Source: Nanobdellota archaeon
GTDB taxonomy: Archaea > Nanobdellota > Nanobdellia > Woesearchaeales > GW2011-AR4
Direction of reading: 5' to 3'
NCBI GenBank assembly: GCA_038046385.1
Contig: JBBSWH010000009.1
Location: forward strand, 47,039 to 111,038
DNA: 64,000 bases
Under the pieces are notes generated by a model. It saw only the letters and a program-made list of their open reading frames with translations, was not told the DNA's origin and did no database searches. Both the position numbers and the translations under genes were made by a program. Below, piece by piece: positions 16,392 through 63,904 of the stretch. Position 1 is the stretch's first letter. Each line of letters begins with the position of its first letter.

Positions 16392-17279
16392 CTGCCTGTT
16401 AAGGACAATTCTAGAAAATATCTTGTCCATAATCTTTGCAAAAGGCTTAAAGTATTTTATGAAAGGGTAAATTGCTATATTGAAAATCTTGAAGGCACCG
16501 TCATTTCTCAGGAAAAAATAAGGGTCCTTGCCGAGGAGATTAGTTCCTTCCTCAAACAGTTTGGAAGATTCAACTGCAATAATCTTTCCATTGCCAAGCT
16601 GCACTTCTTTCATAGTCTTATTTTTAATTAAGCAATTTTCAAACTTTGCCAATGAAGTGAAGAAATAGCTGTATTTCTCGTAGTATTTTATACTGCAGTC
16701 TTTTGGTTTTTTATTTTCAATCATTTTTCCCTTTATTTTTACAATATTCCTGTAAGGAACCCCGTGCATCTGCTCGATATAATGCGCAAATGTAAGCGAC
16801 TGAAAAGGAGCGCCTAGAAACACAACCTTGCCGTTGCTCATGTGCAATTTTGCAAACACAGAATCAGGCCCAAACGTATCTTCGCCTTTTTCAGAAAAAT
16901 AATCTTTTAGGTTTCCCCAAACAGCAACAGAATGTGTTGGATGCAATGTTCTTTTTACTCCTTTCTGCTTCCTGAAGAATTCAGTCAATGTGCCTACTGA
17001 AGATTTTGTTGAATCAGGGTCAAAGACTTCTTTTTTTTCTATGCTATAGGAAAATGTCGGAAGTATTATTGTTCCTGATTTGCCTACTGATTCCTTAAGC
17101 GATTCGATAAGCGAGCCAAGAAGCAGTTCTCTGCCAGAAGCAAGTAGTTTTCCAAAAGACCCTATGTCGGAATGCACAAAAATAATATCTCCTTTTTCTA
17201 TTCCTGCCTTTTTCAGGCTTTTCTGGAAGTCTATCTTCCTTAATATTGCACCGTTTGCCTCATACAGCGGCTCATTCAT
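16386..17279 (-). CDS. AAC(3)-family (Antibiotic_NAT) N-acyltransferase
   Basis: Motifs IFVHSD, IILPTFSY, GTLTEFFR, RTLHPTHSVAVWG and HYIEQ. Start moved to ATG 17279, which overlaps the end of the maoC-like gene. Confidence 0.88.
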   Translation of the reverse strand: MNEPLYEANGAILRKIDFQKSLKKAGIEKGDIIFVHSDIGSFGKLLASGRELLLGSLIESLKESVGKSGTIILPTFSYSIEKKEVFDPDSTKSSVGTLTEFFRKQKGVKRTLHPTHSVAVWGNLKDYFSEKGEDTFGPDSVFAKLHMSNGKVVFLGAPFQSLTFAHYIEQMHGVPYRNIVKIKGKMIENKKPKDCSIKYYEKYSYFFTSLAKFENCLIKNKTMKEVQLGNGKIIAVESSKLFEEGTNLLGKDPYFFLRNDGAFKIFNIAIYPFIKYFKPFAKIMDKIFSRIVLNRQL

Positions 17280-17697
17280 TTTTGAATATGACCTGGACGA
17301 TTCCATTGCCCCTGAATATAAGCTCGTTTTTGTTTCTGTATATCTCTGTTTTTATCTCTACAAATTTTGTAGACTCAATTTTTCTTGTAACCTTTCCAAC
17401 CACTTTTAATTCATCGCCTATAAAATAGGGCTTTACAAACTCAGCATCCTGCTTTATGCAGACTGAAGTGCCTCCGGGAAGGTATTCCCCATAGAGCCGT
17501 GATACAAAACTCGTGAGGAGAAAAGCATACCCTATTCTTTTTCCGAATTTTGTCTTTGATGAAAATTTTTCATTACAGTGTATTGGGCTTTTGTCCCCTG
17601 AGAGGTTAGAGAAGGCATTGTGGAGCTTCTCATCACACTTTACAGTAAAGCTTGCCTCGTCCCCAATGCCTATTTCTGAAAATATTTTTCCTTTCAT
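17272..17697 (-). CDS. MaoC-family hot-dog-fold (de)hydratase
   Basis: Hydratase motif FSNLSGDKSPIH (D-x-x-P-x-H), then FGKRI, LPG and FVKPYFIGD. Confidence 0.9.
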   Translation of the reverse strand: MKGKIFSEIGIGDEASFTVKCDEKLHNAFSNLSGDKSPIHCNEKFSSKTKFGKRIGYAFLLTSFVSRLYGEYLPGGTSVCIKQDAEFVKPYFIGDELKVVGKVTRKIESTKFVEIKTEIYRNKNELIFRGNGIVQVIFKNE

Positions 17698-17924
17698 TTT
17701 GCCTTGGCCTTTTTTTCAAACGAGTTTTTTAAGTCACCAAATGATTTTATGCTTTCTATTTCTTTTATAGTGAATTTTATCCCTGTTTTCTTTTCTATCT
17801 CGCTCATCAGCATCAGGTGATTGAATGAATCCCATTCTTCTGAATTGTCCCTGCTGAAACTGTCGTTCAGCTTTTCCTGCTTTATTCTAAGCACAGAAGC
17901 CATTATTGACTTTAAATTTTCCAT
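17694..17924 (-). CDS. Acyl carrier protein
   Basis: 76 aa with a WDSFNH phosphopantetheine attachment motif (Ser) followed by helix II LMLMSEIE. Confidence 0.88.
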   Translation of the reverse strand: MENLKSIMASVLRIKQEKLNDSFSRDNSEEWDSFNHLMLMSEIEKKTGIKFTIKEIESIKSFGDLKNSFEKKAKAK

Positions 17925-17925
17925 T

Positions 17926-19734
17926 TTATTTTTCCATCACTTTTATAAAATCAGGGGCATTGTATTTTTTTGAAATGTCATATTGCCACAGCTCCGTTCC
18001 ATTTTTCTTTTCCTTTAGCTTAAACCCATTATTCTTATAAAAATCCTTTGCAACTTCATTCTTATTTGTAGGAATAAAAAATGCCTTTAGCTGTTTTGCT
18101 TTTTTGGCTTTTGCTTCTTTTATTATAAACCAGAGCATAGACTCTTCAATCTTTCTTCCAATAACCCTGCAGCTCAGAAGGAATGTGTCAATTTCCCATT
18201 CATCAGCAGATTTTTTGATGATTGCTGCTCCTACAATCCCATTGTCCCCAAATTTATCCCTGCTCCTGACAGAAACTACAATCTCATTTTTGTTATTTGA
18301 CATTTTTTGAATATCCTCTTCAAGATACCTTTTTGTTGTCATATTGAACTGGTTTGTTTTTTGAGTCAGCTGTGATATCCTCGGAATGCTGAAGCTGCTG
18401 GCTTTTTCTATTGCAACAACGCTTCCAAGGCTTTTGAGATAAGAGTCTATATCTTTTGATGAGCTTTGAAGCTCTGCCCTTTTCCTTTGCTCTGCATACA
18501 TTTTTCCTTTTTTAAAATCCTCTTCAGTTATGCTGAATAAATTGAAGTCATTTGTTTCCATCAGGGTTTTTAGGTAAAGCGACGGGTCTTCCGGCATGTC
18601 AACAACAGTTACCTCGGGAAGCATTTTCCTGACAAAATCCCTGTTTAATTTATCATCGTCAATGAAGACCAGGCTATCTAAGCCTATGTTAAGCTCTTTT
18701 GCAATTTCTGCAATGTTTGATGCTTTGTCATCCCAGTTTATTTTCATGGATGCGAAATTGTTTTCCCTTAAGACCATGTCGGGATGTTTTTTAAAAACTT
18801 CAATTGCATCATTAAAATTGTTTTTGCTGCTTATTGCAAGTATCACACCTCTTTCGAACATCGCCAGCAGCGCTTTCTGGAACTCCGTAAACGGCCTTCC
18901 TTCAGGAGTGTTTCCTATTTTTATGCCTTCAATTCCGTCTTCTCCTATTATTCCGCCCCAAAGCGTGTTGTCAAGATCAAGCACGATGCATTTTTTTGTC
19001 AGGATCATCAACGGCTTTATGTAACCCATGTAATCTTTGCACAAATAAGGAACGCTCTGAATGCTTAGCCTGATATCTCCCATGTAATACATCTTGAAAT
19101 CTGTTGTATTTTCTTTGCCGATTTTTGAGCAGAACGATTCATAATCAAACAGGAACACTTTTGGATTATTTTTGCAATAATCCCTTAAATCAGAGTTTAA
19201 TTTTTCAACAGACTCTTTTAACCCAAAATCCTGCCGGTTTTCAAGAATTCCTATAGGGGAGTAAACAGGAACTTCAAAGTTATGCACAACTATTTTTGCA
19301 GTTGTTTTTTTCTCCAGTTTTTCAATAAGAATTTTTATGTCATTAAATTTTGAATTTATGTATGTTTTTCTCTTGCCGGATGATATGGAATACGGATTTA
19401 GGAAATAATCCTGCAGAATTGATTTTGTGTCAATGAAAAGAATCACAAGGCTTGGATTGAATTTGTACAAATCACTCGAATCATCAAGGATTTCCTGGGA
19501 ATACTGATTATATCCCCCGATGTAAATATCTGGGGTTATGCCTGCTTCGCAGCATTTCACAAAGATAGATTCTTTAAATCCGTTTGAAGTAAAGCTCGAG
19601 AGAAAGGCAACTTTCAGCTTCTTGCCGCTTATCTTATTTTTTTTAATTTCAGAATTCAGATGTTTGTAGAGGTTGATGTAGTCCGGCATGTTTTTTGGAT
19701 TTTTTTTCTTTATTATCTGGATTATTCTTTTCAT
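17926..19734 (-). CDS. FkbH-like HAD-IIIC glyceryl-transferase/phosphatase
   Basis: Motifs VLDLDNTLWGG, SKNN, KINWDDK, FIDD, QKTNQFN, DKFGDNG and LLSCRVIGR (acyl-carrying Cys), with a long N-terminal extension. Confidence 0.93.
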   Translation of the reverse strand: MKRIIQIIKKKNPKNMPDYINLYKHLNSEIKKNKISGKKLKVAFLSSFTSNGFKESIFVKCCEAGITPDIYIGGYNQYSQEILDDSSDLYKFNPSLVILFIDTKSILQDYFLNPYSISSGKRKTYINSKFNDIKILIEKLEKKTTAKIVVHNFEVPVYSPIGILENRQDFGLKESVEKLNSDLRDYCKNNPKVFLFDYESFCSKIGKENTTDFKMYYMGDIRLSIQSVPYLCKDYMGYIKPLMILTKKCIVLDLDNTLWGGIIGEDGIEGIKIGNTPEGRPFTEFQKALLAMFERGVILAISSKNNFNDAIEVFKKHPDMVLRENNFASMKINWDDKASNIAEIAKELNIGLDSLVFIDDDKLNRDFVRKMLPEVTVVDMPEDPSLYLKTLMETNDFNLFSITEEDFKKGKMYAEQRKRAELQSSSKDIDSYLKSLGSVVAIEKASSFSIPRISQLTQKTNQFNMTTKRYLEEDIQKMSNNKNEIVVSVRSRDKFGDNGIVGAAIIKKSADEWEIDTFLLSCRVIGRKIEESMLWFIIKEAKAKKAKQLKAFFIPTNKNEVAKDFYKNNGFKLKEKKNGTELWQYDISKKYNAPDFIKVMEK

Positions 19735-20090
19735 TTTTTCATGACAATTGCGAATGCCAATGCCTTGTCTTTGCAGTGGGATAGGCTTATTTTAATCTTC
19801 ACATTTTTGAATTTGTTTAGACTTGCTTTTGGAGCGTCATCAGTACTCGTTATCTCAATGTCATTGTACGAGACTTTTGATTTAATACTTATGGAAGACA
19901 AAGCCTTAACTATAGACTCTTTTCCGGCAAACCTTGCTGCAAGATGCTGTCCCGGAGATTTTTTTGAGTAGCAGTAATCAAGCTCTTTGCCGGTATATAT
20001 CTTTTTCAAAAATATTTTATCTTTTATCCTGCTTAATTTCTTAAACCTTTTTATATCCTCTATATCAGTTCCTATACCAATTTCTTTCAT
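19731..20090 (-). CDS. acpS: Holo-[acyl-carrier-protein] synthase (4'-phosphopantetheinyl transferase)
   Basis: Motifs GIGTDIE, HLAARFAGKESIVKA and ISLSH. Confidence 0.93.
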   Translation of the reverse strand: MKEIGIGTDIEDIKRFKKLSRIKDKIFLKKIYTGKELDYCYSKKSPGQHLAARFAGKESIVKALSSISIKSKVSYNDIEITSTDDAPKASLNKFKNVKIKISLSHCKDKALAFAIVMKK

Positions 20091-34575: not shown

Positions 34576-35697
34576 CTACTGCTCAGAATCCAGCAATCCC
34601 ATTAAATAGTTTTCTATTTCAGGAAATTTTCCGATTAAGCTGATGTTTTCTTCCGGGTCATCTTCAAGATTGTAAAGCTCGTTTTTTCCGCTGGTTTCGT
34701 TGATTATAAGCTTCCATTTGCTGTTTCTTACGCACTTGACATTATGTTTTTCAGGAGACGGAGTTGGGCCCCCCAAGCCTCCTGTTTCGGAATACGATGT
34801 TCTTTCGTCTTTTTTGCCTTTTATCAGCGGAAGGAAAGTTTTTCCCTGCATTTTCATATAATCTGATTTTTCTTTGATTCCAAGAGCATCAAGCAGCGTC
34901 GGCATTATGTCTATGCTTCTTACAAGGCCGTTTACTTCAAGCCCTTTTGTGAAGCCATTGCCGATGGCATATAAAAAGCACTTTATAGTATAATCATAAA
35001 GATATGAGCCGTAAGCCTTTTCCCCAACTTTGTCCCCTATGCTTGCCCCATGATCATTAAAAACAATTATTATGGAATTTTCCCACAGCCCCAATTCTTT
35101 TATCTTATTGATTATCGATTTCAAATAAACCGCGCTTGCCTCAAGATATTTTATGTAGCTTTCCAGATTCTTATCCTTATTTTTGAAGTATTCCTCATCG
35201 AAATCGGTGTATTTTTTTATCACATTGCTGACAAGGCTTGTGTGCAGCTTGCTGTAGTCAAGGAAAAGATAAAAAGGAAGCTTGCCTTTTATTCTGGTTA
35301 GGATTTCCGAATGTCTTTCTACTAAGTCATCATTGAACTCGTCATGAACAGTCAGCTTGTCAAACCCCTGAGAAGGAACAGTGTCGCCGCGTATCAAATC
35401 ACCTTCAGTATAGTATCCCTGTTCCTTTAAGTATTGAGGAAGCGTAAAGCATTCTTTCTTTTTGAAGCTGAATGCTTTGTAGTATCCGTCAACTCCGTTT
35501 TTATTTCCATATACTCCTGAGAATGTGGCGTGCAATGAGGCTATCGTGTAAGGCGCATAAGTTATCATCTGCGAGAAAAAAACACCTTCTTTTTTCAGCT
35601 CATTGTAGTAAGGCACTTTTTCTAAAGTGTTGTGCCTTGCCCCGTCCATCAGTATCATTATTACATTGGGCCTTTTTCTTTTCAAAAAACTGAGCAT
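34576..35697 (-). CDS. Sulfatase-like / alkaline-phosphatase-superfamily hydrolase or transferase
   Basis: Motifs RPNVIMILMD, PYTIASLHATFSG, NDHG, DIMPTLLD and ELYNLEDDPEE. Confidence 0.85.
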   Translation of the reverse strand: MLSFLKRKRPNVIMILMDGARHNTLEKVPYYNELKKEGVFFSQMITYAPYTIASLHATFSGVYGNKNGVDGYYKAFSFKKKECFTLPQYLKEQGYYTEGDLIRGDTVPSQGFDKLTVHDEFNDDLVERHSEILTRIKGKLPFYLFLDYSKLHTSLVSNVIKKYTDFDEEYFKNKDKNLESYIKYLEASAVYLKSIINKIKELGLWENSIIIVFNDHGASIGDKVGEKAYGSYLYDYTIKCFLYAIGNGFTKGLEVNGLVRSIDIMPTLLDALGIKEKSDYMKMQGKTFLPLIKGKKDERTSYSETGGLGGPTPSPEKHNVKCVRNSKWKLIINETSGKNELYNLEDDPEENISLIGKFPEIENYLMGLLDSEQ

Positions 35698-35734
35698 AAG
35701 AAAGATTAATATCTGTAATTTATAAATTTATCAG

Positions 35735-37066
35735 TCAGTCCATATATCCGAGGCTGCGCAGCAGCTTTTTTGACTTTTCTGTCAAGTCAGGCTCGTTCCC
35801 ATCTGATTTTTCATTACGCATCCATGCCTGAAGGCCTGCTTTGAGCGCATCTGCCTTTTCCTTTTCCGCATCTATCATATTTTTTGTTTCATCAGGATCT
35901 TCTTTTATGTTGTAAAGCTCGAAAATGCTGTTTTCGGGATGCGGTATGCAAATCAGCTTCCACTCATTGGACCTTATCATGCGCCATTTGCCCTTTATGC
36001 CGTCTATGTAATGCCTGCTATTATCCTTAAAGTAGCTTATCCCCCCTTCTGCATACGAGAGCTTTCTCCATTCTGACTTCTCGGCGCATTTTACCAGACT
36101 TTTGCCGTCAATCTTGTCTATGAGCGGCATCTTCAGAATATCCAATATTGTTGGCATTATGTCGGTGGACTGCACCTGGAAATCATACCTCGAATCGGGA
36201 AGAATCTTTTTGCTGAATATCAGCGGGACTTTCAGCTCTGCGTCATATGCATAGTCTCCATGGCTGAAGTAAATATTATGCTCCCCTAGAGACTCGCCGT
36301 GGTCTGAAGTGACAATTATCAGGGTCTCATCAATCAGCTTCTTTTTTTCAAGGTGGCTGATTATCCGGCCTATCTGGAAATCAATATACCTTAAGGCGCC
36401 GTCGTAATGGGATATTGCATGCGTTATCTCCTTTTGTGAAAGATTGTTCCTGAAAATCAAGTCGCTTCTCCTGATTTTTTTAAGGTTCATGAAGATATGC
36501 TCTCCAGTATACTCCTTATCAAACATTTTACTGTAAGGGTGTTCTACATCATAGGGCCAATGCGCGTCTACATAATGCAGATAAAGAAAAAAATTCTTGC
36601 CTTTTGCTTCATTTATCTTTTTCACTGCAAAATTCGTCAGGGCTTTTCCAGTGCCTTCTTTATGCTTCCACTTCACTGCCTTTATCATTGACCTTCTTAT
36701 CTTGTTGATTATTTTCCATGACAGCGGATTAAAAGAATCAAATCCTTTTTCTAATCCGGAATTCCTTATATCTATTGAATGGCCAGAAGTCTTATATCCA
36801 TGGGATTTCAGTATTTCCTGCAATGTTGATACAGAAGGCTTCAGCCTGTCAGTGTACAGCTCTCTTATTCCATGGGAATGCGGATAAAGTCCCGTGAGAA
36901 TCGAGGCCACTGAAGGGGTTGTTCTTGGTATTGTTGCCATGCAATTCGGAAAAATGACGCCATTTTTTGCAAGCCCGTCTATGTTTGGAGTCGTATCTCT
37001 TTTGTACCCGTTTATGCCAAGATGATCCGACCTAAGGCAATCGACAACTATTAAAATTACATTCAT
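35735..37066 (-). CDS. Sulfatase-like / alkaline-phosphatase-superfamily hydrolase or transferase
   Basis: Motifs NVILIVVDCLRSDH, TPNID, RTTPSVASILTG, DAHWPY, TSDHGE, ELYNIKEDPDE and C-terminal LRSLGY. Confidence 0.9.
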   Translation of the reverse strand: MNVILIVVDCLRSDHLGINGYKRDTTPNIDGLAKNGVIFPNCMATIPRTTPSVASILTGLYPHSHGIRELYTDRLKPSVSTLQEILKSHGYKTSGHSIDIRNSGLEKGFDSFNPLSWKIINKIRRSMIKAVKWKHKEGTGKALTNFAVKKINEAKGKNFFLYLHYVDAHWPYDVEHPYSKMFDKEYTGEHIFMNLKKIRRSDLIFRNNLSQKEITHAISHYDGALRYIDFQIGRIISHLEKKKLIDETLIIVTSDHGESLGEHNIYFSHGDYAYDAELKVPLIFSKKILPDSRYDFQVQSTDIMPTILDILKMPLIDKIDGKSLVKCAEKSEWRKLSYAEGGISYFKDNSRHYIDGIKGKWRMIRSNEWKLICIPHPENSIFELYNIKEDPDETKNMIDAEKEKADALKAGLQAWMRNEKSDGNEPDLTEKSKKLLRSLGYMD

Positions 37067-54808: not shown

Positions 54809-55510
54809 ATGCAGGTTGTAATACTTTGCGGGGGCAAGGGCACTAGGCTAAGCGAGTATACAGAGGAAATACCAAAGCCGCTTGTGGCAATAGGCAAAAA
54901 GCCCATAATCCATCATCTGATGGAGATGTATTCTTCGTATGGGCATACCGATTTCATATTGTGCCTTGGCTATAAAGGCAATAAAATAGAGAATTATTTC
55001 AAGAACAACAAGGCCAGCAAAAAGTGGAATATATCTTTTGCGCAGACCGGAGAGAACTCTACAAAAGCAGAAAGGCTGATTAAAGTGCGTAAAATGATAA
55101 AAGGAAAGATTTTTCTTGTTTCCTATGGCGACGACTTAAGCGACGTTGATATAAATAAAGTTGTTCTGCATCACGAGAAAAGCAAAAAAACAGTCACTCT
55201 TACAGCAGTTCCGCTAGTTTCCCCTTTTGGAGTAATAGACATAAACAAAAAAAATGAAGCAGTTAAATTCAGGGAAAAACCAAAACTTGACAGCTGGATG
55301 AACGGAGGATTTTATGTTATGGACAAAAAAATATTTGATTTCTTAAATCCCCGGCAGGAACTGGAAAAAGATGCTTTTGAGAATCTTTCTGCAAAAAAAC
55401 AGATTTCAGTTTACAGGCACAATGGATTCTGGAAGTCGATGAATACTTTAAAAGATGTTCTTGAGCTTAATGATATGCACAATCGGGGAGAAACGCCATG
55501 GATAAAATAA
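54809..55510 (+). CDS. rfbF: Glucose-1-phosphate cytidylyltransferase (RfbF-like)
   Basis: Motifs LCGGKGTRLSEYT..IPKPLV, LGYKG, YGD, NGGF and HNGFWKSMNT. It lies directly upstream of an RfbG-like gene. Confidence 0.8.
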   Translation: MQVVILCGGKGTRLSEYTEEIPKPLVAIGKKPIIHHLMEMYSSYGHTDFILCLGYKGNKIENYFKNNKASKKWNISFAQTGENSTKAERLIKVRKMIKGKIFLVSYGDDLSDVDINKVVLHHEKSKKTVTLTAVPLVSPFGVIDINKKNEAVKFREKPKLDSWMNGGFYVMDKKIFDFLNPRQELEKDAFENLSAKKQISVYRHNGFWKSMNTLKDVLELNDMHNRGETPWIK

Positions 55511-56511
55511 ACTGGAAAAAAACAAAAGTCCTTGTGACAGGAGCGGATGGATTTATCGGAAGCCATGTGGCAAAAGAGCTTGCGGACAGGGGATCAGAAG
55601 TCACTGCTATTGTTCGTGATATAAAAAAACAGAGCAATATCGATGTTCTCGGATTAAAAAATAAACTCAATATAATCCATGGAGACCTTGTAAACTTTGA
55701 GGACTGCGAAAGGTGCTTTAATGAATATGAAATAGAATTTTGCTTTCACATTGCCGCACAGGCAATTGTAGGGCCGGCAAACAGAAGCCCGCTGTCAACA
55801 TTTGAATCAAACATAAAAGGAACATGGAACATTTTAGAGGCTGCAAGAAATTCAAAGATGATAAAGGGGCTGGTTATAGCCTCATCAGACAAGGCATACG
55901 GACAGCAAAAAAAATTGCCGTATACGGAAGAATCCCCACTGAACGGGTATTATCCTTATGATGCATCCAAAGCATGCGCAGAAATTCTTGCAAGATGCTA
56001 TTTTATGACATACAAAATTCCGCTGGCAATAACGAGGAATGCCAACACTTATGGGCCGGCAGATATGAACTTCAGCCGCATAATCCCGGATGTGATAACC
56101 AGGCTGATTAAAGGGGAAGAGCCGGTAATAAGAAGCGACGGAACTCCGGAAAGGGATTACATGTTCATAGAAGATGCAGTCAGCGCATACATTACTCTTG
56201 CAGAAAATCTTCACAGAAAAGAAATTGTCGGGGAAGCATTCAATTTCGGCACAGGAAAGCCAATAAGCGTGACTGAGCTTTACAGCAAAATAATAAAAAT
56301 AATGGGAAGCAAGGCAAAGCCTAAAATCCTTGGCGAAGCGAAGAACGAGATTGACAGGCAGTACCTTGACTCAAGCAAGGCAAAAAATATGCTGAAGTGG
56401 GAAGCAAAATACAGCATAGATGCAGGCCTTAAAAAAACCATTGAATGGTACAAATCACACCTAAAATCTCAGAAATCTTCGATTTCTGATGATGCTCAAA
56501 AATCCGGGTGA
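55498..56511 (+). CDS. rfbG: CDP-glucose 4,6-dehydratase-like extended SDR
   Basis: Motifs W...VLVTGADGFIG, HIAAQAIV, SSDKAY, PYDASK, N.YGPADMNFSRIIP and AFNFG. Confidence 0.78.
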   Translation: MDKINWKKTKVLVTGADGFIGSHVAKELADRGSEVTAIVRDIKKQSNIDVLGLKNKLNIIHGDLVNFEDCERCFNEYEIEFCFHIAAQAIVGPANRSPLSTFESNIKGTWNILEAARNSKMIKGLVIASSDKAYGQQKKLPYTEESPLNGYYPYDASKACAEILARCYFMTYKIPLAITRNANTYGPADMNFSRIIPDVITRLIKGEEPVIRSDGTPERDYMFIEDAVSAYITLAENLHRKEIVGEAFNFGTGKPISVTELYSKIIKIMGSKAKPKILGEAKNEIDRQYLDSSKAKNMLKWEAKYSIDAGLKKTIEWYKSHLKSQKSSISDDAQKSG

Positions 56512-56521
56512 TTTTTGACAT
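56469..56521. repeat. Twin-hairpin palindromic unit, copy 3 (inverted relative to copies 1-2)
   Basis: TCAGAAATC-TTC-GATTTCTGA-TGATGC-TCAAAAATC-CGGGT-GATTTTTGA-CAT. Its reverse complement shares ATGTCAAAAATC and GATTTTTGAGCAT with copy 1. Confidence 0.75.
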
Positions 56522-57614
56522 GAAAATTCTTGTTCTGATGAAGCGCTTCGGCGCCAATAAGGACATGGTTCTTGAGAATTTTGGAAGGCAAGTAAGATTA
56601 TTTGAAGAACTTTCAAAGCTCGGGCACAAAATAGACTTTTTTTGCCCGGACTATAAAAAACACGAAAGAAAGGACATCAAGAGAAAAGGAATAAACTATC
56701 ATGTGAGGCCTTATTCATTAAAACTGCATTTTAAATTTTCAGAAGAGTTGATACGGCTAATAAAAAAAAATAATTACGATGTTATTGTAGGCTCAACCGA
56801 TCCGTTGTGGGGAATCCTCGGATACAGATACTCAAAAAAATTTAACATTCCCTGTATTTATGACATGCAGGATGATTACAGCTCCTATGAAAGCCACAAA
56901 AACCCGCTTGTCAGGCACTTTGACAGAACTGCAGTCAAAAATTCAGATATTGTCCTGACAGTCAGCGATTCCCTGAACCAGCACATTTCAAAATTCAGGA
57001 AAAGGGCCACAATTACAATACAGAACGGCTTTGATGCAAAAGATTTCAGCAAAATCAGCAAAGAAACCGCAAGAAAAAAACTAAACCTGCCAAACGGAAA
57101 AATTGCAATATACGCCGGCGAGATAAGCAAGTTTAAGGGCGTTGATGTTCTTGTGGAAGCATTTGAAGATGTTGCAAAAAAAATACCGGATGCAAGGCTG
57201 CTGCTAAGCGGCAAAATAATCGATGTTGATGTAACGCGTAAATATATTATTTATGAATCATATTCCAAGAGGAAAGACTTAATGGATGCATTATCTGCGG
57301 CAGATGTTGCGGTGCTTCCCAACATAAATAATGAATTTTCAAGATACTGCTTTCCTTACAAGCTTGTTGAATACATGGCAGCAGGCCTTCCAATTGTTGC
57401 AACAAAAGTGGGAGATGCATCTTCAATCCTTTCAAAGCACAATAAGCTGCTGTGCGAGCCCAACAACAAAAAAGATATGGCAGAAAAGTTAATATACGCA
57501 TTGAAAAGCAGCAAGAAGCCTGATTACCGAAATGCGCTAAAAAAGCTGACATGGCAGAATCTTGCAAAAAAACTGGACGATACAATCAGGAACAAGCTAA
57601 AATGGAATCAATAA
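56520..57614 (+). CDS. Glycosyltransferase family 4
   Basis: Motifs YDMQD, IQNG, YAGEISKFKG and FPYKLVEYMAAGLPIV. ATG 56520 is preferred over GTG 56508. Confidence 0.9.
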   Translation: MKILVLMKRFGANKDMVLENFGRQVRLFEELSKLGHKIDFFCPDYKKHERKDIKRKGINYHVRPYSLKLHFKFSEELIRLIKKNNYDVIVGSTDPLWGILGYRYSKKFNIPCIYDMQDDYSSYESHKNPLVRHFDRTAVKNSDIVLTVSDSLNQHISKFRKRATITIQNGFDAKDFSKISKETARKKLNLPNGKIAIYAGEISKFKGVDVLVEAFEDVAKKIPDARLLLSGKIIDVDVTRKYIIYESYSKRKDLMDALSAADVAVLPNINNEFSRYCFPYKLVEYMAAGLPIVATKVGDASSILSKHNKLLCEPNNKKDMAEKLIYALKSSKKPDYRNALKKLTWQNLAKKLDDTIRNKLKWNQ

Positions 57615-58411
57615 AAGAGCTAAGGGCAATCTGCCAGACAAAAAAACAGCCGATGTACATGCAGCTGGTTTCAACACGCATATCGATATACATCACAAAA
57701 CTTTACCTTTACACCGGGCTTTCTGCAGACTATGTGACTATTTTTATGATGCTCCTAGTCATAGCCGGCTCAATCATAATGGCAACAGGAAGCTTATGGA
57801 ACATTCTTATCGGCATACTTCTGATTCATTTCACAATAATTCTTGACAATGTAAACGGGGAAGTTGCGCGCTACAACAGGGAAGACGGGCTTATAGGGAC
57901 TTTTCTTGAGCAGGTTTACCATAACCTTGCAGTGCCCTCATTGTTTTTTTCCATTTCATTCGGAGTTTTCACTGCAACAGGAACCAAATCAGTCTTGATT
58001 TTTGGATTCCTCGCTTCCATATTCGGGATGCCGATAATTCTGAAATCAATAAAGGATGCAGTAATAGATGAGAGATTAAGCGAAATAAAAAAAGGAAGGA
58101 AGCGGCAGAAAATAAGCTTAAAATCAACAAACATACAGGGAGGCGGCTCATTATTCGGAGGCATGCTTTACTCCCTTTATGAAAAATTCAGGGCAATATG
58201 GGTTTACCCTGCAAACATAGTTCACATAACGGTTCTGGCAATAATTGAAATTTTAAACATAAAAAGGGGCTACTTCACGCCGTATTCATCATTTGTTTAT
58301 TACATATGGATATATGGCTCTGTTTCTGCCATAGTGCAGTCAGCGGCGTTTATTGTAAACTACAGGGGAAAAACAATAGACCATTATTACAAGGAGCTTT
58401 TTGGGAAATAA
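57602..58411 (+). CDS. CDP-alcohol phosphotransferase family protein (degenerate motif)
   Basis: Motifs SADYVT and ILDNVNGEVAR...GTFLEQVYH, against canonical DxxDGxxAR...GxxxDxxxD. ATG 57602 is preferred. Confidence 0.75.
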   Translation: MESIKELRAICQTKKQPMYMQLVSTRISIYITKLYLYTGLSADYVTIFMMLLVIAGSIIMATGSLWNILIGILLIHFTIILDNVNGEVARYNREDGLIGTFLEQVYHNLAVPSLFFSISFGVFTATGTKSVLIFGFLASIFGMPIILKSIKDAVIDERLSEIKKGRKRQKISLKSTNIQGGGSLFGGMLYSLYEKFRAIWVYPANIVHITVLAIIEILNIKRGYFTPYSSFVYYIWIYGSVSAIVQSAAFIVNYRGKTIDHYYKELFGK

Positions 58412-58412
58412 T

Positions 58413-59843
58413 ATGAAATTCGGCACTGCAAGGAGAATAACTGCCAATTTTGCGAGCCTCGCTACAGCAGAAATAACATCAAAAATCATTCAGGCGCTTA
58501 TTTTTATTTATCTTGCAAGATTTCTCGGCAAAGATGATTTTGGAATTTTCAGCTTCAGCATTTCCTTTAGCCTTATTTTCATGATATTGGCTGATTTTGG
58601 CATGGGGACGCTGTTTGTTAGGGAGATAAGCAGGAAAAAGGAGCAAGCTTCAAAATTCTTCTCGCACGGCCTGGCAATAAAGGCAGTGCTTGCCGCCATC
58701 AGCCTTGCGCTTGGCTACATGTTCCTTAATATTATGGGATATCCGCAAAGGACAGTTTATGTTGCATCAATAATGCTGCTGTTCGCAGCGCTGCAGTCAT
58801 TCACAGAACTGCATTTCTCCATCTTCAGGGCATTTGAAAAAATGCATTATGAGATGATTTTAAAGGTCATTAGGATATTATCAATTGCCGGCCTCGTCCT
58901 TTATCTGACAAAAAACGGGCACGGGATAATTGCAGCTTCCCTTATTTTTCCCCTTATAGAATTTATAATGCTTCTTTTTGCCTTTGTAATAGTCAGTGCA
59001 AAATTTGCGAAAGTTGACCTGAGGCTGGATTTTGAATTTTCAAAATCAATACTGAAAGAATCATACATACTCTTCCTTTCATTGCTGTTTGCAACCCTTT
59101 ACCTGTATGTTGATGTAGTGATGCTGTCAAAAATGCGCACAAATGCAGAAGTTGGAATTTACTCGGCAGCGTCCAATATAGTCATAGCGCTGATTTTTGT
59201 ACCTTTGATGTACGCGAATTCTATATATCCGACAATCTCCAGATTTTATATCACATCAAAAAAATCCTTGGCCTGGGTGTATGAGAAATCCTTTAAGTAC
59301 ATGCTTATGCTCGGGTGCCCGATAGCAGCAGGGCTGTTTGTTTTGTCTGATAAAATAATAAATTTCCTGTATGGCCAGCAGTATGCCCAGTCTGCTGCAG
59401 TGCTTATGGTATGGTCAGGATACATTTTGCTGAAATTTCTTAATCCTATCGGCGGATACACACTTCTTGCAACTGACCAGCAGCATAAACGCCTTGCCGG
59501 CCAGGGCGCAGCTGCTGCCATAAACATAATACTGAACATTATCCTTATTCCGGCTTACGGAATCATGGGGGCTGCTTTTGCCACCCTAATCACAGAAATA
59601 ATATTCACAGCAATATACTGCTCATTCATGGCCAAATTCGGAATTAATTTCAAGTTCCTGAAGAAGTTTTCCTATAAGATTGTGATTGCCGTTTTGGCTA
59701 TGGCAATCATATTATTTTACATCAGAAATCTTGCCGCTGCAATATTGATAGGCGCATCGGTATACCTGGCTGTGATATTTTTACTGCGGGTTATTGATGA
59801 AGAAGACAAAGCTTTATTTAACAGGGTTGTAAGAAACACCTGA
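58413..59843 (+). CDS. Oligosaccharide flippase (Wzx/MOP superfamily)
   Basis: Motifs ARFLGKDDFG, DFG....VREIS, DVVMLS....VGIYSAA and LIPAYGIMGAA. Confidence 0.92.
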   Translation: MKFGTARRITANFASLATAEITSKIIQALIFIYLARFLGKDDFGIFSFSISFSLIFMILADFGMGTLFVREISRKKEQASKFFSHGLAIKAVLAAISLALGYMFLNIMGYPQRTVYVASIMLLFAALQSFTELHFSIFRAFEKMHYEMILKVIRILSIAGLVLYLTKNGHGIIAASLIFPLIEFIMLLFAFVIVSAKFAKVDLRLDFEFSKSILKESYILFLSLLFATLYLYVDVVMLSKMRTNAEVGIYSAASNIVIALIFVPLMYANSIYPTISRFYITSKKSLAWVYEKSFKYMLMLGCPIAAGLFVLSDKIINFLYGQQYAQSAAVLMVWSGYILLKFLNPIGGYTLLATDQQHKRLAGQGAAAAINIILNIILIPAYGIMGAAFATLITEIIFTAIYCSFMAKFGINFKFLKKFSYKIVIAVLAMAIILFYIRNLAAAILIGASVYLAVIFLLRVIDEEDKALFNRVVRNT

Positions 59844-59849
59844 TCTATT

Positions 59850-60719
59850 TTATTCAGGAGACTTTTTTTTCTTTAAGTTATAAAGCACAATGTCAGGCAC
59901 ATTAACTTCCCCCAGCTTAGACCTGTAATTTCCATGATAATCATTTCCGCCGCTTTCAAGTATTTTTTTTGATTTGACAATGTTCCTGTAAAAATCTATC
60001 AGGCCGATGTTGCCTTTCGCGTCAAGATGCAGATGAGGGCAGATTACATGGTAGGGGTAATAGGTTTCAATGCCATCCCCCCCTTCACCTATGAAAAAAT
60101 CTATTATTTTCAATGACCTGTCTTTCGGATATACTCCCGGATGGGCAAGTATTGCAACTCCTCCTGCATTTTTTATTGTCTGAATTCCTTCTTTTATCGA
60201 CACTCTTCCTTCTGTGCCTACAAAAGCAGGCTTTCCTGTGCCTATAAGCTGGTCAAAAACATCAGCCACTGACTTGAATTTATCAGGATATTTTTTCAGA
60301 AGAAACTTGGCAATGTGGGGCCTGCCAAAAGTCCCTTTTGCTGTTTTTTTCACTTCGTCAAAATCAATTTCAAAGCCAAGGCTATTGAGCTTCTTTATAA
60401 CCTCTCTTTTGTTCTCGTCTCTTTTTTTGTTGATATGCTCTGTAAGCTTAATAAGGTATTTATTTTTGTAATCCACAAGAAGCCCAAGAACATCAATCTT
60501 ATCTAGGCCAAACAAAGGATCATCGCAGCTGAGCTCTATTCCGGGAACAATTTCTATTCCTTTGGCTTTTGAATAATCGACGGCTTTTTTGATTGATGCA
60601 AGTGTGTCATGATCTGTTATTGCAATTGCTTTAATCCCTTTGGCTACTGCAAGGTCAACAAGCTCTTCAGGGGACAATTCCCCGTCCGATGCAACGGTGT
60701 GGCTTTGTAGATCTATCAT
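59850..60719 (-). CDS. PHP-domain metal-dependent phosphoesterase (TrpH/YciV, 3',5'-nucleoside bisphosphate phosphatase-like)
   Basis: Motifs DLQSHTVASDG, AITDHD, GIELS, GRPHIA, LAHP and GGNDYHG. Confidence 0.9.
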   Translation of the reverse strand: MIDLQSHTVASDGELSPEELVDLAVAKGIKAIAITDHDTLASIKKAVDYSKAKGIEIVPGIELSCDDPLFGLDKIDVLGLLVDYKNKYLIKLTEHINKKRDENKREVIKKLNSLGFEIDFDEVKKTAKGTFGRPHIAKFLLKKYPDKFKSVADVFDQLIGTGKPAFVGTEGRVSIKEGIQTIKNAGGVAILAHPGVYPKDRSLKIIDFFIGEGGDGIETYYPYHVICPHLHLDAKGNIGLIDFYRNIVKSKKILESGGNDYHGNYRSKLGEVNVPDIVLYNLKKKKSPE

Positions 60720-60724
60720 TTTAA

Positions 60725-61354
60725 TTAGAAACTTTTATTTTTTAATATTCCTACAATATCTTTTGCTAGCCTATTGAATTTTTCCGGATTAATTATTGTT
60801 TTTTTAACCGGACTCATTTTCACAAATTCTTCTCCTGCCTTTTCTTTGAATATTTCTTTTTTCTCGAAAGAGCTGTCAACAGTATACGGCTGGCCTATAT
60901 TTCCCCTGAAAGGGAATATCTTGATGTGCAAATGCTCCTTCTTGTCTTCCCAGGTAGTGCATTTTCCGTATGCTGCTATCGGAACTGATTTGTTTTTTTC
61001 AGATGTATGCGAAAGAAGATTTTCATCCTTTATCATTATTGATGCCATTGCCATGTTAAGCTTTGCAAACGCCATTCCAAAATTTTCTGCAAGTTTCGGA
61101 TATGAGCTTATCTGGGAAAAATGAGTAAGATGCAGCATAGGCATTATCTGGATTGTAAAGTCTGATTTTAATCCCCCTGTTTTCGGAGACAAAGTGGCAA
61201 ACCACCCGTTTTTTCTGTTCCCGATTTTGTAGATTACAGTGCCATACCCTGTATTTTTGCCCACTGCAGAATTTGCTTCCCTGCACAGGCTGCATTCCTT
61301 CCTTGTGCCTGTTTTCTCGCTGAACAGTTTTATTGCTTCTTTTGTCTTTTGCAT
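60725..61354 (-). CDS. HIT-like nucleotide hydrolase/transferase
   Basis: N-terminal CSLC, a P-x-x-H segment (IMPMLHLTHF), and EHLHIKIFP resembling the HxHxH triad with His-to-Lys at the third position. Confidence 0.55.
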   Translation of the reverse strand: MQKTKEAIKLFSEKTGTRKECSLCREANSAVGKNTGYGTVIYKIGNRKNGWFATLSPKTGGLKSDFTIQIMPMLHLTHFSQISSYPKLAENFGMAFAKLNMAMASIMIKDENLLSHTSEKNKSVPIAAYGKCTTWEDKKEHLHIKIFPFRGNIGQPYTVDSSFEKKEIFKEKAGEEFVKMSPVKKTIINPEKFNRLAKDIVGILKNKSF

Positions 61355-61355
61355 T

Positions 61356-62444
61356 TTAATCGTGGACTACCCTCATATACTCATTGTCCCTCTTTTCAGT
61401 CAAATAAGAGTCAAAGTATCCCATAACAATCCTATAATATACTGGGCCTCGCTTTGGCTTTACTTCCTCAACAATGCCGCTTGCCTCAACCTTTTCTTCA
61501 GGATATGCAAGCATGCAATAGTCCCTCGAATAAAAAACTACCTTGCTTATTGGAAGATTTTTGCATGCATCGTCTCCTGAGATAAATCTGGAATTGGATA
61601 TTCCATAGCATCCCGGACGCACGACAGAATCTTTGTTGCTGGTTACAGTGCCGTAAAATTTTGCCGTGCCGACTCTTTTGTATTTTTCCCTGCCCCATTC
61701 GAACCAGGATTCATTTTTATTTTCAACAGCAAAAATGATAAATAACGTATCCATGAAAAAACCCTCTGATTTTTTCCTGTGCATATTTTTTATGTAAATC
61801 TCCTTATTGTGCACCATGTGCCTGTTGCGCTTTTTGTAAAAATGCTCCCATTCATCATATGTTTTCCATCTTAAATTCCGGTTATTAGATGATTCCATGA
61901 ACTTCATTAATTTCCAGAACTTATCCTTGCCGTAGACCACTATGTTTATGTCAGATATTTTCGGGGAGTAGTGCCCCATAAGAGTTGAGTATGTAACTCC
62001 AAAATCATTCAGCTTAAGGCCGCTTTCCAGCAAAAAAGTTATGAGCTTTGTGACTTTTTGAAGATGCAGGTCCAAATCCTTTTCCGGTATTTTCATCAAG
62101 CCGGACAATCCTTTTCTTGGAGAATACTCCCGCTCTATCTTGCTTTTAGGCACTGCAAAAAAAAGTGGGCTTATGTCGTGGACACTGCTTTTGTAGATGT
62201 AATGCCTGTATTTTTTCCTGAAATCATCAATGTATTTTTTCAGCTCACTTGGATTTATCCATAGGTCAAGCCTGTTCATTTTCATTCCGGAGATAAATCT
62301 GTAAGGCAATGCATCAGAGGAAATTTTATTTGTAGGAATATATTTTGGCTTGACTAAAATCCTTCCGTCAGGATGCTCATTGCCGTAAACCTGGCAGTGC
62401 AACCCGTCTTTTGTCGTTATTATTGAAGATTCGTAGAAGTGCAT
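61356..62444 (-). CDS. Archaeal-type predicted nucleotidyltransferase (COG1665-like, Pol-beta fold), paralog B
   Basis: GVTYSTLMG....SDINIVVYG, N-terminal HP.G....KY and a C-terminal OB-like region. Confidence 0.72.
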   Translation of the reverse strand: MHFYESSIITTKDGLHCQVYGNEHPDGRILVKPKYIPTNKISSDALPYRFISGMKMNRLDLWINPSELKKYIDDFRKKYRHYIYKSSVHDISPLFFAVPKSKIEREYSPRKGLSGLMKIPEKDLDLHLQKVTKLITFLLESGLKLNDFGVTYSTLMGHYSPKISDINIVVYGKDKFWKLMKFMESSNNRNLRWKTYDEWEHFYKKRNRHMVHNKEIYIKNMHRKKSEGFFMDTLFIIFAVENKNESWFEWGREKYKRVGTAKFYGTVTSNKDSVVRPGCYGISNSRFISGDDACKNLPISKVVFYSRDYCMLAYPEEKVEASGIVEEVKPKRGPVYYRIVMGYFDSYLTEKRDNEYMRVVHD

Positions 62445-62445
62445 T

Positions 62446-63546
62446 TTAGATCTCGGATTTTATGAATTCTTTTTCTCTTCTGTCGCTTATGTAGGCGTCA
62501 AAATATCCAACGACAATTCTGTAATATTTTTTTCCTTTTTTTGGAGCTGCGAGCTCAAGCAGGCCGCATGCTGTAATCTGCTCCCCTTTCAGCGCCTGCT
62601 GCACAAATGGGATGGAGTACGTAACTACTTTAGTTATAGGAATGGATTTGTCAATATTTAAATTTTCTCCTGAGCTTTTTATCATTTTTCCATCAGATAT
62701 CTCATAGCATCCCGGCCTCACAAGGCTGTTGTAGTGGCCTGTGACTTTACCTGTTATTGTAGCAGTTCCTATTGGCCTGTATTTTTCTTCACCCCATTTG
62801 AACCACGATTCTTTGGCCTCTTCAACAGTGAACAATGTAAAAACATTTCCTCCAAACATGCCTTCATATCTTTTTCTTCTCATATGGCTTACATATTCCT
62901 GCTCTGTGAAATGCATTGACTCTGATGTTTTGTGTTCCTTGTAGTATTCTGCCCATTCTTTGTCGGTTTTCCAGTGAAGCTTCTCGTGTTTTGCAGTCTT
63001 TAAGTAGTCAAGTATTTTCCATCCGTTTTCTTTTCCGTAGATTATGATGTCTATGTCTGATTTTCCAGGAGTGTAGTTTCCAAGCAGAGTTGAATGTGTT
63101 ATGCCAAGATTATTCATGCTTACGCCGCTCTTTGCCAAAAATTCCACAAGCTCCCTTACAAGTGTCAGGTATTGGTCAAGGTCTTTTTCAGGGACTTTCA
63201 TCAGCTCCACAAGCCCTTTTTTTGAGTCATGCACTGTTTTTATTTTTTTTGTGGGAACAGCGAAATACCAGTTGCCGGTGTCTTTGCACTCATATATATA
63301 ATCCGGAAACTTTTTTTTGAATTGCTTTATGGACTCTTTTAGCTTTTCCTTGTCAGAAAAAAGATTGAAGCGTATCATGCACTTTTCAAAAAGAAACCGG
63401 TACTTCAGGCCTTTGAGGTCAAGGGCGTCTTTTGGTATATATTTTGGCTTTACAATGATATACCCTTTAGGGTGCTGATTGGAATATGACTTGCACTGGA
63501 AGCCGTCTACAGTGTCAATAAGAATCGATTCGTAAAAGTGCACCAT
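62446..63546 (-). CDS. Archaeal-type predicted nucleotidyltransferase (COG1665-like, Pol-beta fold), paralog A
   Basis: GITHSTLLG.....SDIDIIIYG, with the same architecture as the adjacent paralog. Confidence 0.78.
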   Translation of the reverse strand: MVHFYESILIDTVDGFQCKSYSNQHPKGYIIVKPKYIPKDALDLKGLKYRFLFEKCMIRFNLFSDKEKLKESIKQFKKKFPDYIYECKDTGNWYFAVPTKKIKTVHDSKKGLVELMKVPEKDLDQYLTLVRELVEFLAKSGVSMNNLGITHSTLLGNYTPGKSDIDIIIYGKENGWKILDYLKTAKHEKLHWKTDKEWAEYYKEHKTSESMHFTEQEYVSHMRRKRYEGMFGGNVFTLFTVEEAKESWFKWGEEKYRPIGTATITGKVTGHYNSLVRPGCYEISDGKMIKSSGENLNIDKSIPITKVVTYSIPFVQQALKGEQITACGLLELAAPKKGKKYYRIVVGYFDAYISDRREKEFIKSEI

Positions 63547-63567: not shown

Positions 63568-63575
63568 TACTTAAA
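63568..63575 (-). promoter_or_regulatory. TATA-like box of the NTase-NTase-HIT-PHP operon
   Basis: TTTAAGTA on the minus strand, 21 nt before ATG 63546. Confidence 0.45.
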
Positions 63576-63634
63576 TCTTACTAAACTGTCTTCTATAGGC
63601 TTTATGAAAAACACTCAAAGAAATAAAGAAACAG

Positions 63635-63904
63635 TTATTGTTTTTTTGGTTTTTTAAAGTAGAAAAATACCCCTATATAAAACACAGTAGTTACGATGGC
63701 AATTACATATTTGATTATAAGCGGCATCTGATTTATCATCAAAGCATAAGCCAAGGCAATAAAGTTTGCCACAAGATATATTACAAAAAGCAGCAGGCTA
63801 ACTCCGCTGGTATCTTTCATCTTTAAAGTTTTTATTATCTGCGGGATTATCATCACAGAAAATAAAAATGTGGCAATCCATCCCAATGTTTGAGCTAAGT
63901 CCAT
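63635..63904 (-). CDS. SemiSWEET / PQ-loop small transporter
   Basis: 89 aa with 3 TMs and motifs LGWIA, IPQIIKT and TSGVS. TTTATAAA lies 21 nt upstream. Confidence 0.88.
   Translation of the reverse strand: MDLAQTLGWIATFLFSVMIIPQIIKTLKMKDTSGVSLLLFVIYLVANFIALAYALMINQMPLIIKYVIAIVTTVFYIGVFFYFKKPKKQ

Follow-up and report, generated by a model that had tools for sequence, protein, structure and literature searches.

What does a tight operon of four genes do amid the surface-glycan genes of an archaeon of the phylum Nanobdellota? The operon lies near one end of a 64-kb stretch of the genome (the window, by which we mean the whole stretch of 64,000 nucleotides that was analysed). It encodes two paralogous proteins, A and B, each combining a nucleotidyltransferase (NTase) domain with an OB fold, followed by a HIT-like protein and a PHP phosphoesterase. 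An initial annotation saw in these genes a nucleotide writer and eraser system serving signalling, repair or defence. Our analysis points instead to metabolism. The reading we favour, to which we give about an even chance, is that A, B and the HIT-like protein together (A·B-HIT) would act as a non-homologous stand-in for ATP sulfurylase, while the PHP protein would clear the nucleotide by-product, the 3',5'-bisphosphate nucleotide pAp. What we say about function draws on gene context and on predictions of the protein folds and of the A·B interface. The four genes are listed below, with protein lengths in amino acids (aa); all are taken from the list of open reading frames (ORFs).

62446-63546, minus strand: A, NTase-OB protein, 366 aa, presumed catalytic subunit
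61356-62444, minus strand: B, NTase-OB paralog of A, 362 aa, presumed non-catalytic or altered partner
60725-61354, minus strand: HIT-like protein, 209 aa
59850-60719, minus strand: PHP phosphoesterase of the TrpH/YciV type, 289 aa

Four conserved genes and their products

The gaps between A and B, B and the HIT gene, and the HIT gene and PHP are 1, 1 and 5 nt, and all four genes lie on the minus strand. The initial annotation had described this tight operon, an active NTase paired with an altered one, the replacement of their usual GS by HS or YS, a HIT-like third protein with a CxxC motif and a fourth protein of the TrpH/YciV-type PHP family. Among the checks that it proposed were conservation of the neighbourhood and a model of the A+B complex. 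On every one of these points our results bear it out. The neighbourhood was followed in 64 loci of DPANN archaea, found in a scan of one genome per species; neighbour labels are best tblastn matches, checked against Pfam for representatives only. B comes directly after A wherever there is room for it (54 of 54 loci), and the HIT gene is next after B in 47 of 50. PHP is directly next in 32 of 46 loci and within about 1.1 kb in 3 more; in 11 it is not in the stretch. Recurring as it does in 64 loci of other genomes, the four-gene arrangement goes far beyond what chance would produce. Of 201 sampled genomes of the phylum, 9 carry the family and 6 have clear A/B pairs, and a HIT gene adjoins the pair in each of the 6. 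This indicates that the A-B-HIT trio is patchy in distribution but inherited as a unit. Named homologues come from metagenome-assembled genomes of Woesearchaeota, Nanoarchaeota, Aenigmatarchaeota and Iainarchaeota.

Several of the genes also occur as fusions. B and HIT are joined in protein P0246 and form a single open frame in G003/L150. PHP and adenosine 5'-phosphosulfate (APS) kinase make up one 469-aa ORF that lies directly after A-B-HIT (L012:8796-10205, plus strand). The N-terminus of A is fused to an NPP-type phosphodiesterase in P0243 and to an HD-like domain in P0241 (residues 1-250; recognized by eye, no Pfam match).

A and B align from end to end with 44% identity (E 2e-113). In A, a beta-rich N-terminal part (residues 1-120) is followed by a Pol-beta NTase core (about 121-246) and then by an OB fold (about 255-366), and its AlphaFold model, built from a 60-sequence alignment, has a pLDDT of 95.5. 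Structural comparison with VIA-align matched residues 121-246 to TUT7 (Z 7.4, root-mean-square deviation (rmsd) 3.0, 84 residues aligned) and to PolX (Z 7.1, rmsd 3.1, 89 aligned), and residues 255-366 to the OB folds of MCM-N (Z 7.7) and SSB (Z 7.1), all of these Z scores being middling. The Pfam model NTP_transf_2 (PF01909) gave A 20 bits against a cut-off of 21 (E 9.5e-4) and did not match B; P0266, a member of the wider family, clears the cut-off with 29.8 bits. Sequence searches found no solved relatives for A or for the family profile, and the ESM Atlas returned for A only unnamed archaeal NTase-like clusters.

The two proteins differ in their catalytic residues. A carries SDID, and SDxD is fixed in 57 of 57 orthologues; with E246, invariant in the first alignment, as the third carboxylate, A has the NTase motif. 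B carries SDIN, with SDxN likewise fixed in 57 of 57, so that its second metal-binding Asp is Asn and it lacks the DxD. In place of the usual GS, A has HS in 56 of 57 orthologues and B has YS in all 57. Across the 57 A/B pairs, 83 columns are at least 95% conserved in B and 62 in A. Judged by this conservation, selection on B is at least as strict as that on A.

Modelled as a complex, A and B scored 0.78, and the best of three controls scored 0.01. As a yardstick, 116 of 157 solved complexes came up to this mark, as did 2 of 215 mismatched pairs, counts that are only a rough guide here because the A+B run used alignments of our own. Contact agreement between runs was 100%, with a partner pLDDT of at least 89. 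The interface is pseudo-symmetric and involves residues 48-56, 106-127 and 154-162 of both chains, the last of these adjoining the catalytic loop that leads into the DxD. A and B are thus predicted to form a dimer; since they are paralogs, the prediction does not separate a heterodimer from homodimers. Heteromeric pairs of an active and an inactive NTase, and CysD/CysN, resemble this arrangement in combining a catalytic subunit with a diverged partner, here under equal selection and in a predicted pseudo-symmetric dimer. The analogy is one of concept only: the block, unlike CysD/CysN, lacks a GTPase subunit, and its B subunit is a DxN paralog.

The predicted structure of the 209-aa third protein clearly has a HIT fold. 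Its model has a pLDDT of 72.5, with an extra C-terminal segment of low confidence. The top VIA-align match is the Ap4A phosphorylase 3ano (Z 13.3, rmsd 3.4, 130 aligned); 17 chains reach a Z of at least 8, and among the matches listed, those with Z 7.2 or more belong to HIT, Fhit, GalT-like and related folds (DcpS, DUF4931 and one uncharacterised). Foldseek gave probabilities of up to 0.99, but at an E of 0.016, and the ESM Atlas returned HIT-domain clusters (0.91). No sequence match was found in Pfam (E<=0.1), NCBIfam or the PDB. The residues C21 and C24 (CxxC), H75 and H78 (HxxH), and H141, H143 and K145 are invariant, and the CxxC and HxxH together may form a Zn site. The GalT/Ap4A-phosphorylase branch of the HIT superfamily is marked by HxHxQ and an N-terminal Cys/His Zn site. 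The protein is a possible member of that branch, which includes Rv2613c and Apa1/2: it has CxxC and HxxH, the CxxC resembles the GalT Zn site, and the best structural match is an Ap4A phosphorylase. The histidine triad HxHxHxx is incomplete: H141-L-H143-I-K145 retains its first two His, including the presumed nucleophile, and has an invariant Lys in place of the third His or of the Gln of HxHxQ. The lack of a sequence-level match and the extra C-terminal segment are further differences from this branch. Enzymes of the Ap4A phosphorylase family also act on adenylyl sulfate (ADP-sulfurylase activity), and for HIT phosphorylases breakdown is the thermodynamically favoured direction.

The fourth protein matches Pfam PF02811 with 53.2 bits (cut-off 26.4) and is homologous to solved chains of the TrpH/YciV type (7ug9, E 6.5e-25; 2yb1, E 1.3e-22). 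Two NCBIfam models match it almost equally, 3',5'-nucleoside bisphosphate phosphatase (E 1.5e-41, 142 bits) and RNase RNM (E 5e-41, 141 bits), and in both cases it stays below the equivalog cut-off (400 and 375, respectively). In its N-terminal HxH metal motif the first His is Gln (D-L-Q-S-H-T), a variant found in 20 of the 43 operon PHP genes examined; the remainder keep His. We consider it a candidate pAp phosphatase. Its homology to the bisphosphate nucleotidase Cv1693 (2yb1) and to E. coli RNase AM (YciV/TrpH, 7ug9) is clear, and clearing of pAp fits its fusion to APS kinase. It differs from both in lying far under the equivalog cut-offs and in the Gln of its HxH.

Proposed sulfate activation and the position of ATP sulfurylase

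The neighbours of the block provide the link to sulfate. APS kinase (PF01583) is present in 25 of the 64 loci, on the same strand just after PHP in 13, divergent and just 5' of A in 10, and about 3 kb off in 2. Sulfotransferases occur in 8 loci and genes of the sulfatase family likewise in 8, and at least one sulfur-related gene is found in 34 of the 64. The genome that holds the window (1.28 Mb in 19 contigs, 85% complete, with the window reaching a contig end) has its APS kinase at the end of a different contig, C4, next to more sugar-nucleotide genes and a paralog (L149:13097-13858, minus strand) of a CDP-alcohol-transferase-like gene of the window. No match to ATP sulfurylase (PF01747) was found in this genome at its 85% completeness, in G135, or in any of another 10 genomes in which one locus holds both the block and APS kinase. 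The CysD-type family PF01507 had no match in this genome and weak matches in 2 of 5 others. The phylum sample holds 20 genomes with a strong APS kinase and 14 with ATP sulfurylase, 12 of which have both. Among the 8 with APS kinase and no sulfurylase, 2 (this genome and G135) carry the A-B-HIT trio. Canonical ATP sulfurylase was therefore found in 0 of 12 genomes with the block and APS kinase, versus 12 of 18 APS-kinase genomes without the block, a comparison that overstates independence because the genomes are related and the completeness of the locus-derived ones is not given.

Ten canonical loci of the same phylum carry ATP sulfurylase (Sat) as part of a PK-PUA_2-ATP-sulfurylase(-APS-kinase) fusion of 748-913 aa. 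Genes around them recur around the block. An RHH gene and an NPP gene lie immediately 5' of the sulfurylase fusion in L158, and an NPP-type phosphodiesterase lies directly 5' of A in 34 of the 64 block loci, with a small RHH-like gene ahead of it in 19; only 6 of the 64 have APS kinase as well as NPP. A CDP-alcohol-transferase-like gene lies immediately 3' of the Sat-APS-kinase fusion in L160 and occurs also in L155. In L159 a PQ-loop gene (65% identity) sits just 5' of APS kinase, with an ATP-sulfurylase match on the other side. Flippases and sulfotransferases were also found near canonical sulfurylase loci. On the block side, the series A-B-HIT-PHP-APS kinase comes straight after a separate PK-like gene in L040, L044, L047 and L049. 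These shared flanking genes indicate that the block occupies the position of ATP sulfurylase, which is the classical signature of non-orthologous displacement.

The architecture of the canonical fusion is itself unusual: a pyruvate-kinase (PK) barrel is joined to PUA_2 and ATP sulfurylase and, in some cases, to APS kinase. Examples are L158:6110-8851 (minus), L153:4631-6877 (plus) and L160:6343-8820 (minus).

In the mechanism that we propose, the A·B-HIT complex would supply APS or 3'-phosphoadenosine 5'-phosphosulfate (PAPS) for the decoration of surface glycans or lipids. A·B would first bind ATP-Mg at the DxD...E site of A and transfer AMP to an oxyanion, releasing pyrophosphate (PPi); in loci of the APS-kinase type this oxyanion would be sulfate. 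B, with its fixed DxN, could serve as a scaffold or second binding site and would dock the HIT subunit. The HIT protein would then relay or exchange the adenylyl group through a His-AMP at His143, thereby forming or proofreading APS. Where APS kinase is present it would convert APS to PAPS, and in this genome that step would depend on the gene encoded on the other contig. After sulfuryl transfer, PHP would cleave pAp to AMP, or it might pull the reaction by hydrolysing PPi. The family matches of PHP (pAp phosphatase and RNase AM) and of the HIT protein (Ap4A phosphorylase) suit the roles proposed for them, and the glycan-island setting described below fits a sulfate-activation role.

The claim is that A·B-HIT works like ATP sulfurylase or PAPS synthase (Sat, PF01747), not that it belongs to that family. 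The two share a genomic position and partners as well as the proposed reaction (AMP from ATP to sulfate), and they are mutually exclusive in the genomes examined. A and B, which combine the Pol-beta fold with an OB domain and would act jointly with a HIT protein, show no kinship to Sat in sequence or fold, and about half of the block-bearing loci are without APS kinase.

Several observations, besides the relatedness of the genomes and the paralogy of A and B already mentioned, weigh against this reading. APS kinase was absent at E<=1e-10 from 10 of 10 genomes with the order RHH-NPP-A-B-HIT-PHP (completeness not given), and 4 of the 6 A/B-pair genomes in the phylum sample have no strong APS kinase. 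PAPS therefore cannot be the product everywhere, and, as PHP is kept in genomes that lack APS kinase, PHP cannot serve solely to clear pAp derived from PAPS. Six genomes with APS kinase have neither the canonical sulfurylase nor the block, which means that the block is not the sole alternative to sulfurylase. No sulfotransferase of PF00685 or PF13469 turned up in this genome. We found none of the known sulfurylases to resemble A, B or the HIT protein in sequence or fold. In L025 (8189-9499) and L031, a class-II aminoacyl-tRNA-synthetase-like (ProRS-like) gene replaces HIT between B and PHP. Lastly, the wider NTase-OB family, discussed below, is found in tetrahydromethanopterin-biosynthesis clusters and not in sulfur clusters. 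Taken together, this counter-evidence suggests that the product may be APS used directly and that the acceptor oxyanion may differ among operon types.

The glycan island and variants of the block

The entire 64-kb window is a cell-surface glycan island. It contains many glycosyltransferases and sugar-nucleotide enzymes, two flippases and four UDP-glucose-dehydrogenase-type genes, together with a glucuronyl-C5-epimerase-like gene and a group of FkbH-like, ACPS and MaoC genes. Its content hints at the synthesis of an acidic, possibly sulfated, glycosaminoglycan-like polymer. Three stretches of the window are of note in their own right (15207-16391, 34576-37066 and 17272-20090). The features that bear on the block and its surroundings are as follows.

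34576-37066, minus strand: two genes of the sulfatase family (alkaline-phosphatase superfamily), matching PF00884 with E 5.9e-26 and 1.6e-55
54809-59843, plus strand: sugar-1-phosphate nucleotidyltransferase, NAD epimerase/dehydratase, GT4 glycosyltransferase, membrane protein and polysaccharide flippase, assigned by Pfam
57551-58411, plus strand: membrane protein with a degenerate CDP-alcohol phosphotransferase motif, PF01066 at E 0.023 (weak)
63568-63576, minus strand: TATA-like A/T-rich element ATTTAAGTA, about 25 nt 5' of the ATG of A
63635-63904, minus strand: small PQ-loop (SemiSWEET-like) membrane protein, 89 aa, Pfam PQ-loop at E 6e-13

The flippase is convergent with PHP, and glycan genes flank the block in 32 of the 64 loci. 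Homologues of the CDP-alcohol-transferase-like membrane protein occur in 14 of the 64 loci; they sit just after PHP or APS kinase and match PF01066 in L021 (5.5e-12) and L027 (2.5e-10). This protein could be a transferase that uses the activated donor. The PQ-loop gene lies on the same strand as A, 88 nt 5' of it, and may belong to the module, as homologues are found in or beside the block in 4 of the 64 loci. The initial annotation had placed the four genes under a single TATA-like box. An A/T-rich element does stand in that position, TTTAAGTA lying within the 88-nt gap 5' of A, and as a promoter it has likeness to the consensus only.

Variation among the loci affects both sequence and gene content. 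By identity to the A of the window, A falls into two deep groups, L001-L033 (58-78%) and L034-L061 (45-53%). B, HIT and PHP do not track this split; in L040, for instance, A is 49% and B 73% identical. Because the other three genes depart from the split in A, sequence identity suggests that the block evolved as a mosaic. Three loci have, on the opposite strand between B and the usual HIT gene, a further and distant HIT-like paralog with 26-28% identity (L038:8189-8755, L056:8169-8777 and L058:8181-8771, all minus), and L050 has a distant HIT-like copy upstream.

Other explanations and the wider NTase-OB family

Relatives of A and B outside the block bear on what the pair may do. A profile search of the wider NTase-OB family returned 953 representatives at E<=1e-3, with members of about 340 aa in Bathyarchaeia, Thermoproteota, Nitrososphaerota, Methanomethylicia and Hodarchaeota. 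Their context was taken from 80 metagenome loci (L068-L147), scanned with 12 closer sequences. All 143 members examined keep GS and DxD. Adjacent paralogs are common, with at least two in 51 of the 80 loci and at least three in 19 (2-4 per cluster), and no HIT or PHP gene was found in the 80. CitG adjoins the family in 41 loci, and methanopterin or C1-pathway genes are present in 52 (L073, L102, L104 and L122, for example). The latter include MptE-like, GCHY-1, pterin-binding DHPS-like, GHMP kinase, DUF447, DUF1464, DmrX-like flavoprotein, Ftr and FwdB/D genes, and representative P0323 is fused to HPPK. Judged by these neighbours, the wider family acts on small molecules, probably in late steps of methanopterin biosynthesis. 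Those late steps require that a ribose-5-phosphate phosphodiester be built, by analogy with CitG/CitX through transfer of a ribosyl-5-phosphate or adenylyl group, and CitX, an enzyme of NTase fold, transfers a ribosyl-5-phosphate unit with loss of PPi.

This context suggests for A and B a metabolic role with phosphoanhydride or phosphodiester chemistry; taken alone, it gives no pointer to sulfate. The CitG/CitX (MdcB/MdcG) system is similar in that CitG adjoins the wider family and in that the chemistry of CitX is of the proposed kind. A and B differ from CitX in having no Pfam CitX match (E<=0.1), in being twice its size and in their extra N-terminal and OB domains. A methanopterin role in this organism was considered and set aside, as tblastn of 12 pathway and cluster proteins, taken from loci of the wider family, against the genome gave one short match only. 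CitG was not found in this genome (tblastn, E<=0.01), and none of the 64 DPANN loci falls in the CitG cluster.

A broader reading, which we find conceivable and are more inclined to doubt than to accept, would combine the two roles. A·B-HIT would be an unrecognised sulfate adenylyltransferase, and the GS/DxD relatives beside CitG would carry out late steps of tetrahydromethanopterin synthesis. A heterodimer of NTase and pseudo-NTase with a GalT-like HIT relay would have displaced the PK-PUA-ATP-sulfurylase in situ in many DPANN archaea, while the all-catalytic relatives would attach ribose-5-phosphate and the hydroxyglutarate phosphodiester. The chemistry common to the family would then be adenylyl or phosphoribosyl transfer to oxyanions or hydroxy acids.

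Among the alternatives to sulfate activation, the one that survives best, although we consider it unlikely, is that the block makes another nucleotide-activated donor (an NDP- or AMP-linked sugar phosphate, polyol phosphate or acid) for phosphodiester decoration of surface glycans or lipids. A·B would then resemble CitX, LicD or FKRP or be an X-phosphate nucleotidyltransferase, the HIT protein would perform a GalT-like exchange, the CDP-alcohol-transferase-like protein would be the transferase, PHP would strip off a terminal phosphate, and APS kinase would be a mere neighbour in the island. Such a role agrees with the retention of PHP, and often NPP, in the genomes without APS kinase (0 of 10 have it), with the CDP-alcohol-transferase-like gene (14 of the 64 loci) and the glycan genes (32 of them) around the block, and with the position of the wider family beside CitG (41 of 80 loci) and within methanopterin-biosynthesis clusters. 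The GalT-like N-terminal CxxC of the HIT protein and the GalT-like chains that match its fold (Z 7.2-8.9) are also in keeping with it. However, it leaves unexplained the mutual exclusion of the block and ATP sulfurylase (0 of 12 versus 12 of 18), the flanks shared with PK-PUA-Sat(-APS-kinase) and the PHP-APS-kinase fusion.

Alternatively, the block could degrade or regulate adenylyl-sulfate-type or other nucleotides, recycling AMP-containing by-products in nucleotide-poor DPANN cells. In this case the HIT protein would be an APS or ApnA phosphorylase, PHP and NPP would be nucleotide phosphoesterases, and A·B would be a regulator or salvage enzyme. HIT, PHP, NPP and the HD-like domain of P0241 do come from families that mostly hydrolyse or phosphorolyse, and the direction favoured by HIT phosphorylases is breakdown. 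Nevertheless, the set of NTase catalytic residues in A is intact and strongly selected, the enzyme that the block replaces in situ is a biosynthetic one, and where the block and APS kinase occur together we detected nothing else in the genome that could provide APS. We therefore regard a degradative function as improbable.

The purpose proposed in the initial annotation, that a heterodimeric NTase writes a nucleotidyl mark or signal which HIT and PHP erase, in signalling or anti-virus defence, found no support and now seems very improbable. It is true that the Pol-beta NTase fold is common to cGAS/CD-NTases and AMPylators (a cGAS-like receptor matches A at Z 6.6), that the distribution is patchy (of 201 genomes, 9 have the family and 6 a clear A/B pair), and that the HIT and PHP families are able to cleave nucleotidyl linkages. 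PADLOC, however, assigned no family to A, B or HIT and gave PHP one marginal match (E 9e-4), and the recurrent annotated neighbours belong to glycan or sulfur metabolism, with no defence-island genes. In the B-HIT fusion, writer and eraser would share a single polypeptide, an arrangement more in keeping with a catalytic relay than with two antagonists. Given the sulfate-linked and glycan partners and the position of ATP sulfurylase, HIT and PHP look like partners in one metabolic pathway and not like erasers of a signal.

Least probable of all is nucleic-acid end processing or repair, in which the NTase-OB proteins would extend RNA or DNA ends, HIT would remove 5'-AMP like aprataxin and PHP would be a 3'-phosphatase or a 5'-3' exonuclease. 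In favour of it, the OB fold is similar to SSB, MCM-N and the anticodon-binding domains of aminoacyl-tRNA synthetases (Z 6-7.7) and the NTase core to TUTases and PolX (Z about 7); RNase AM is a homologue of PHP, and aprataxin matches the HIT model (Z 5.7-6.2). Against it, all these Z scores are middling, nucleic-acid enzymes do not recur near DPANN or wider-family loci, the genome encodes its own archaeal CCA-adding enzyme, and the HIT model is much closer to Ap4A phosphorylase and plain HIT proteins than to aprataxin. A and B were also considered, and rejected, as a replacement for that CCA-adding enzyme, since the archaeal cca homologue of this genome scores 279.7 bits (cut-off 281.3).

Returning to A·B-HIT as a stand-in for ATP sulfurylase, we found no family model, solved structure or paper that describes the operon or its A/B and HIT-like families, the literature having been covered as titles and abstracts, with subscription journals outside the coverage. 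The parts come from known superfamilies and the pathway is known; the enzyme solution proposed here would be new. To our knowledge, only two enzyme types are known to activate sulfate, Sat and CysDN. If the proposal is true, A·B-HIT would be a third, unrelated solution and a textbook case of non-orthologous displacement.

For the wider NTase-OB family, the analysis provides concrete candidate genes for the missing late steps of methanopterin biosynthesis, making a long-standing gap testable. For archaea more generally, a role of the block in sulfate activation would mean that the capacity for sulfur metabolism and sulfation has to be read differently from genomes, many of which show a seemingly orphan APS kinase. 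DPANN archaea live attached to host cells, and it would also imply that their surfaces bear sulfated, possibly glycosaminoglycan-like, polymers.

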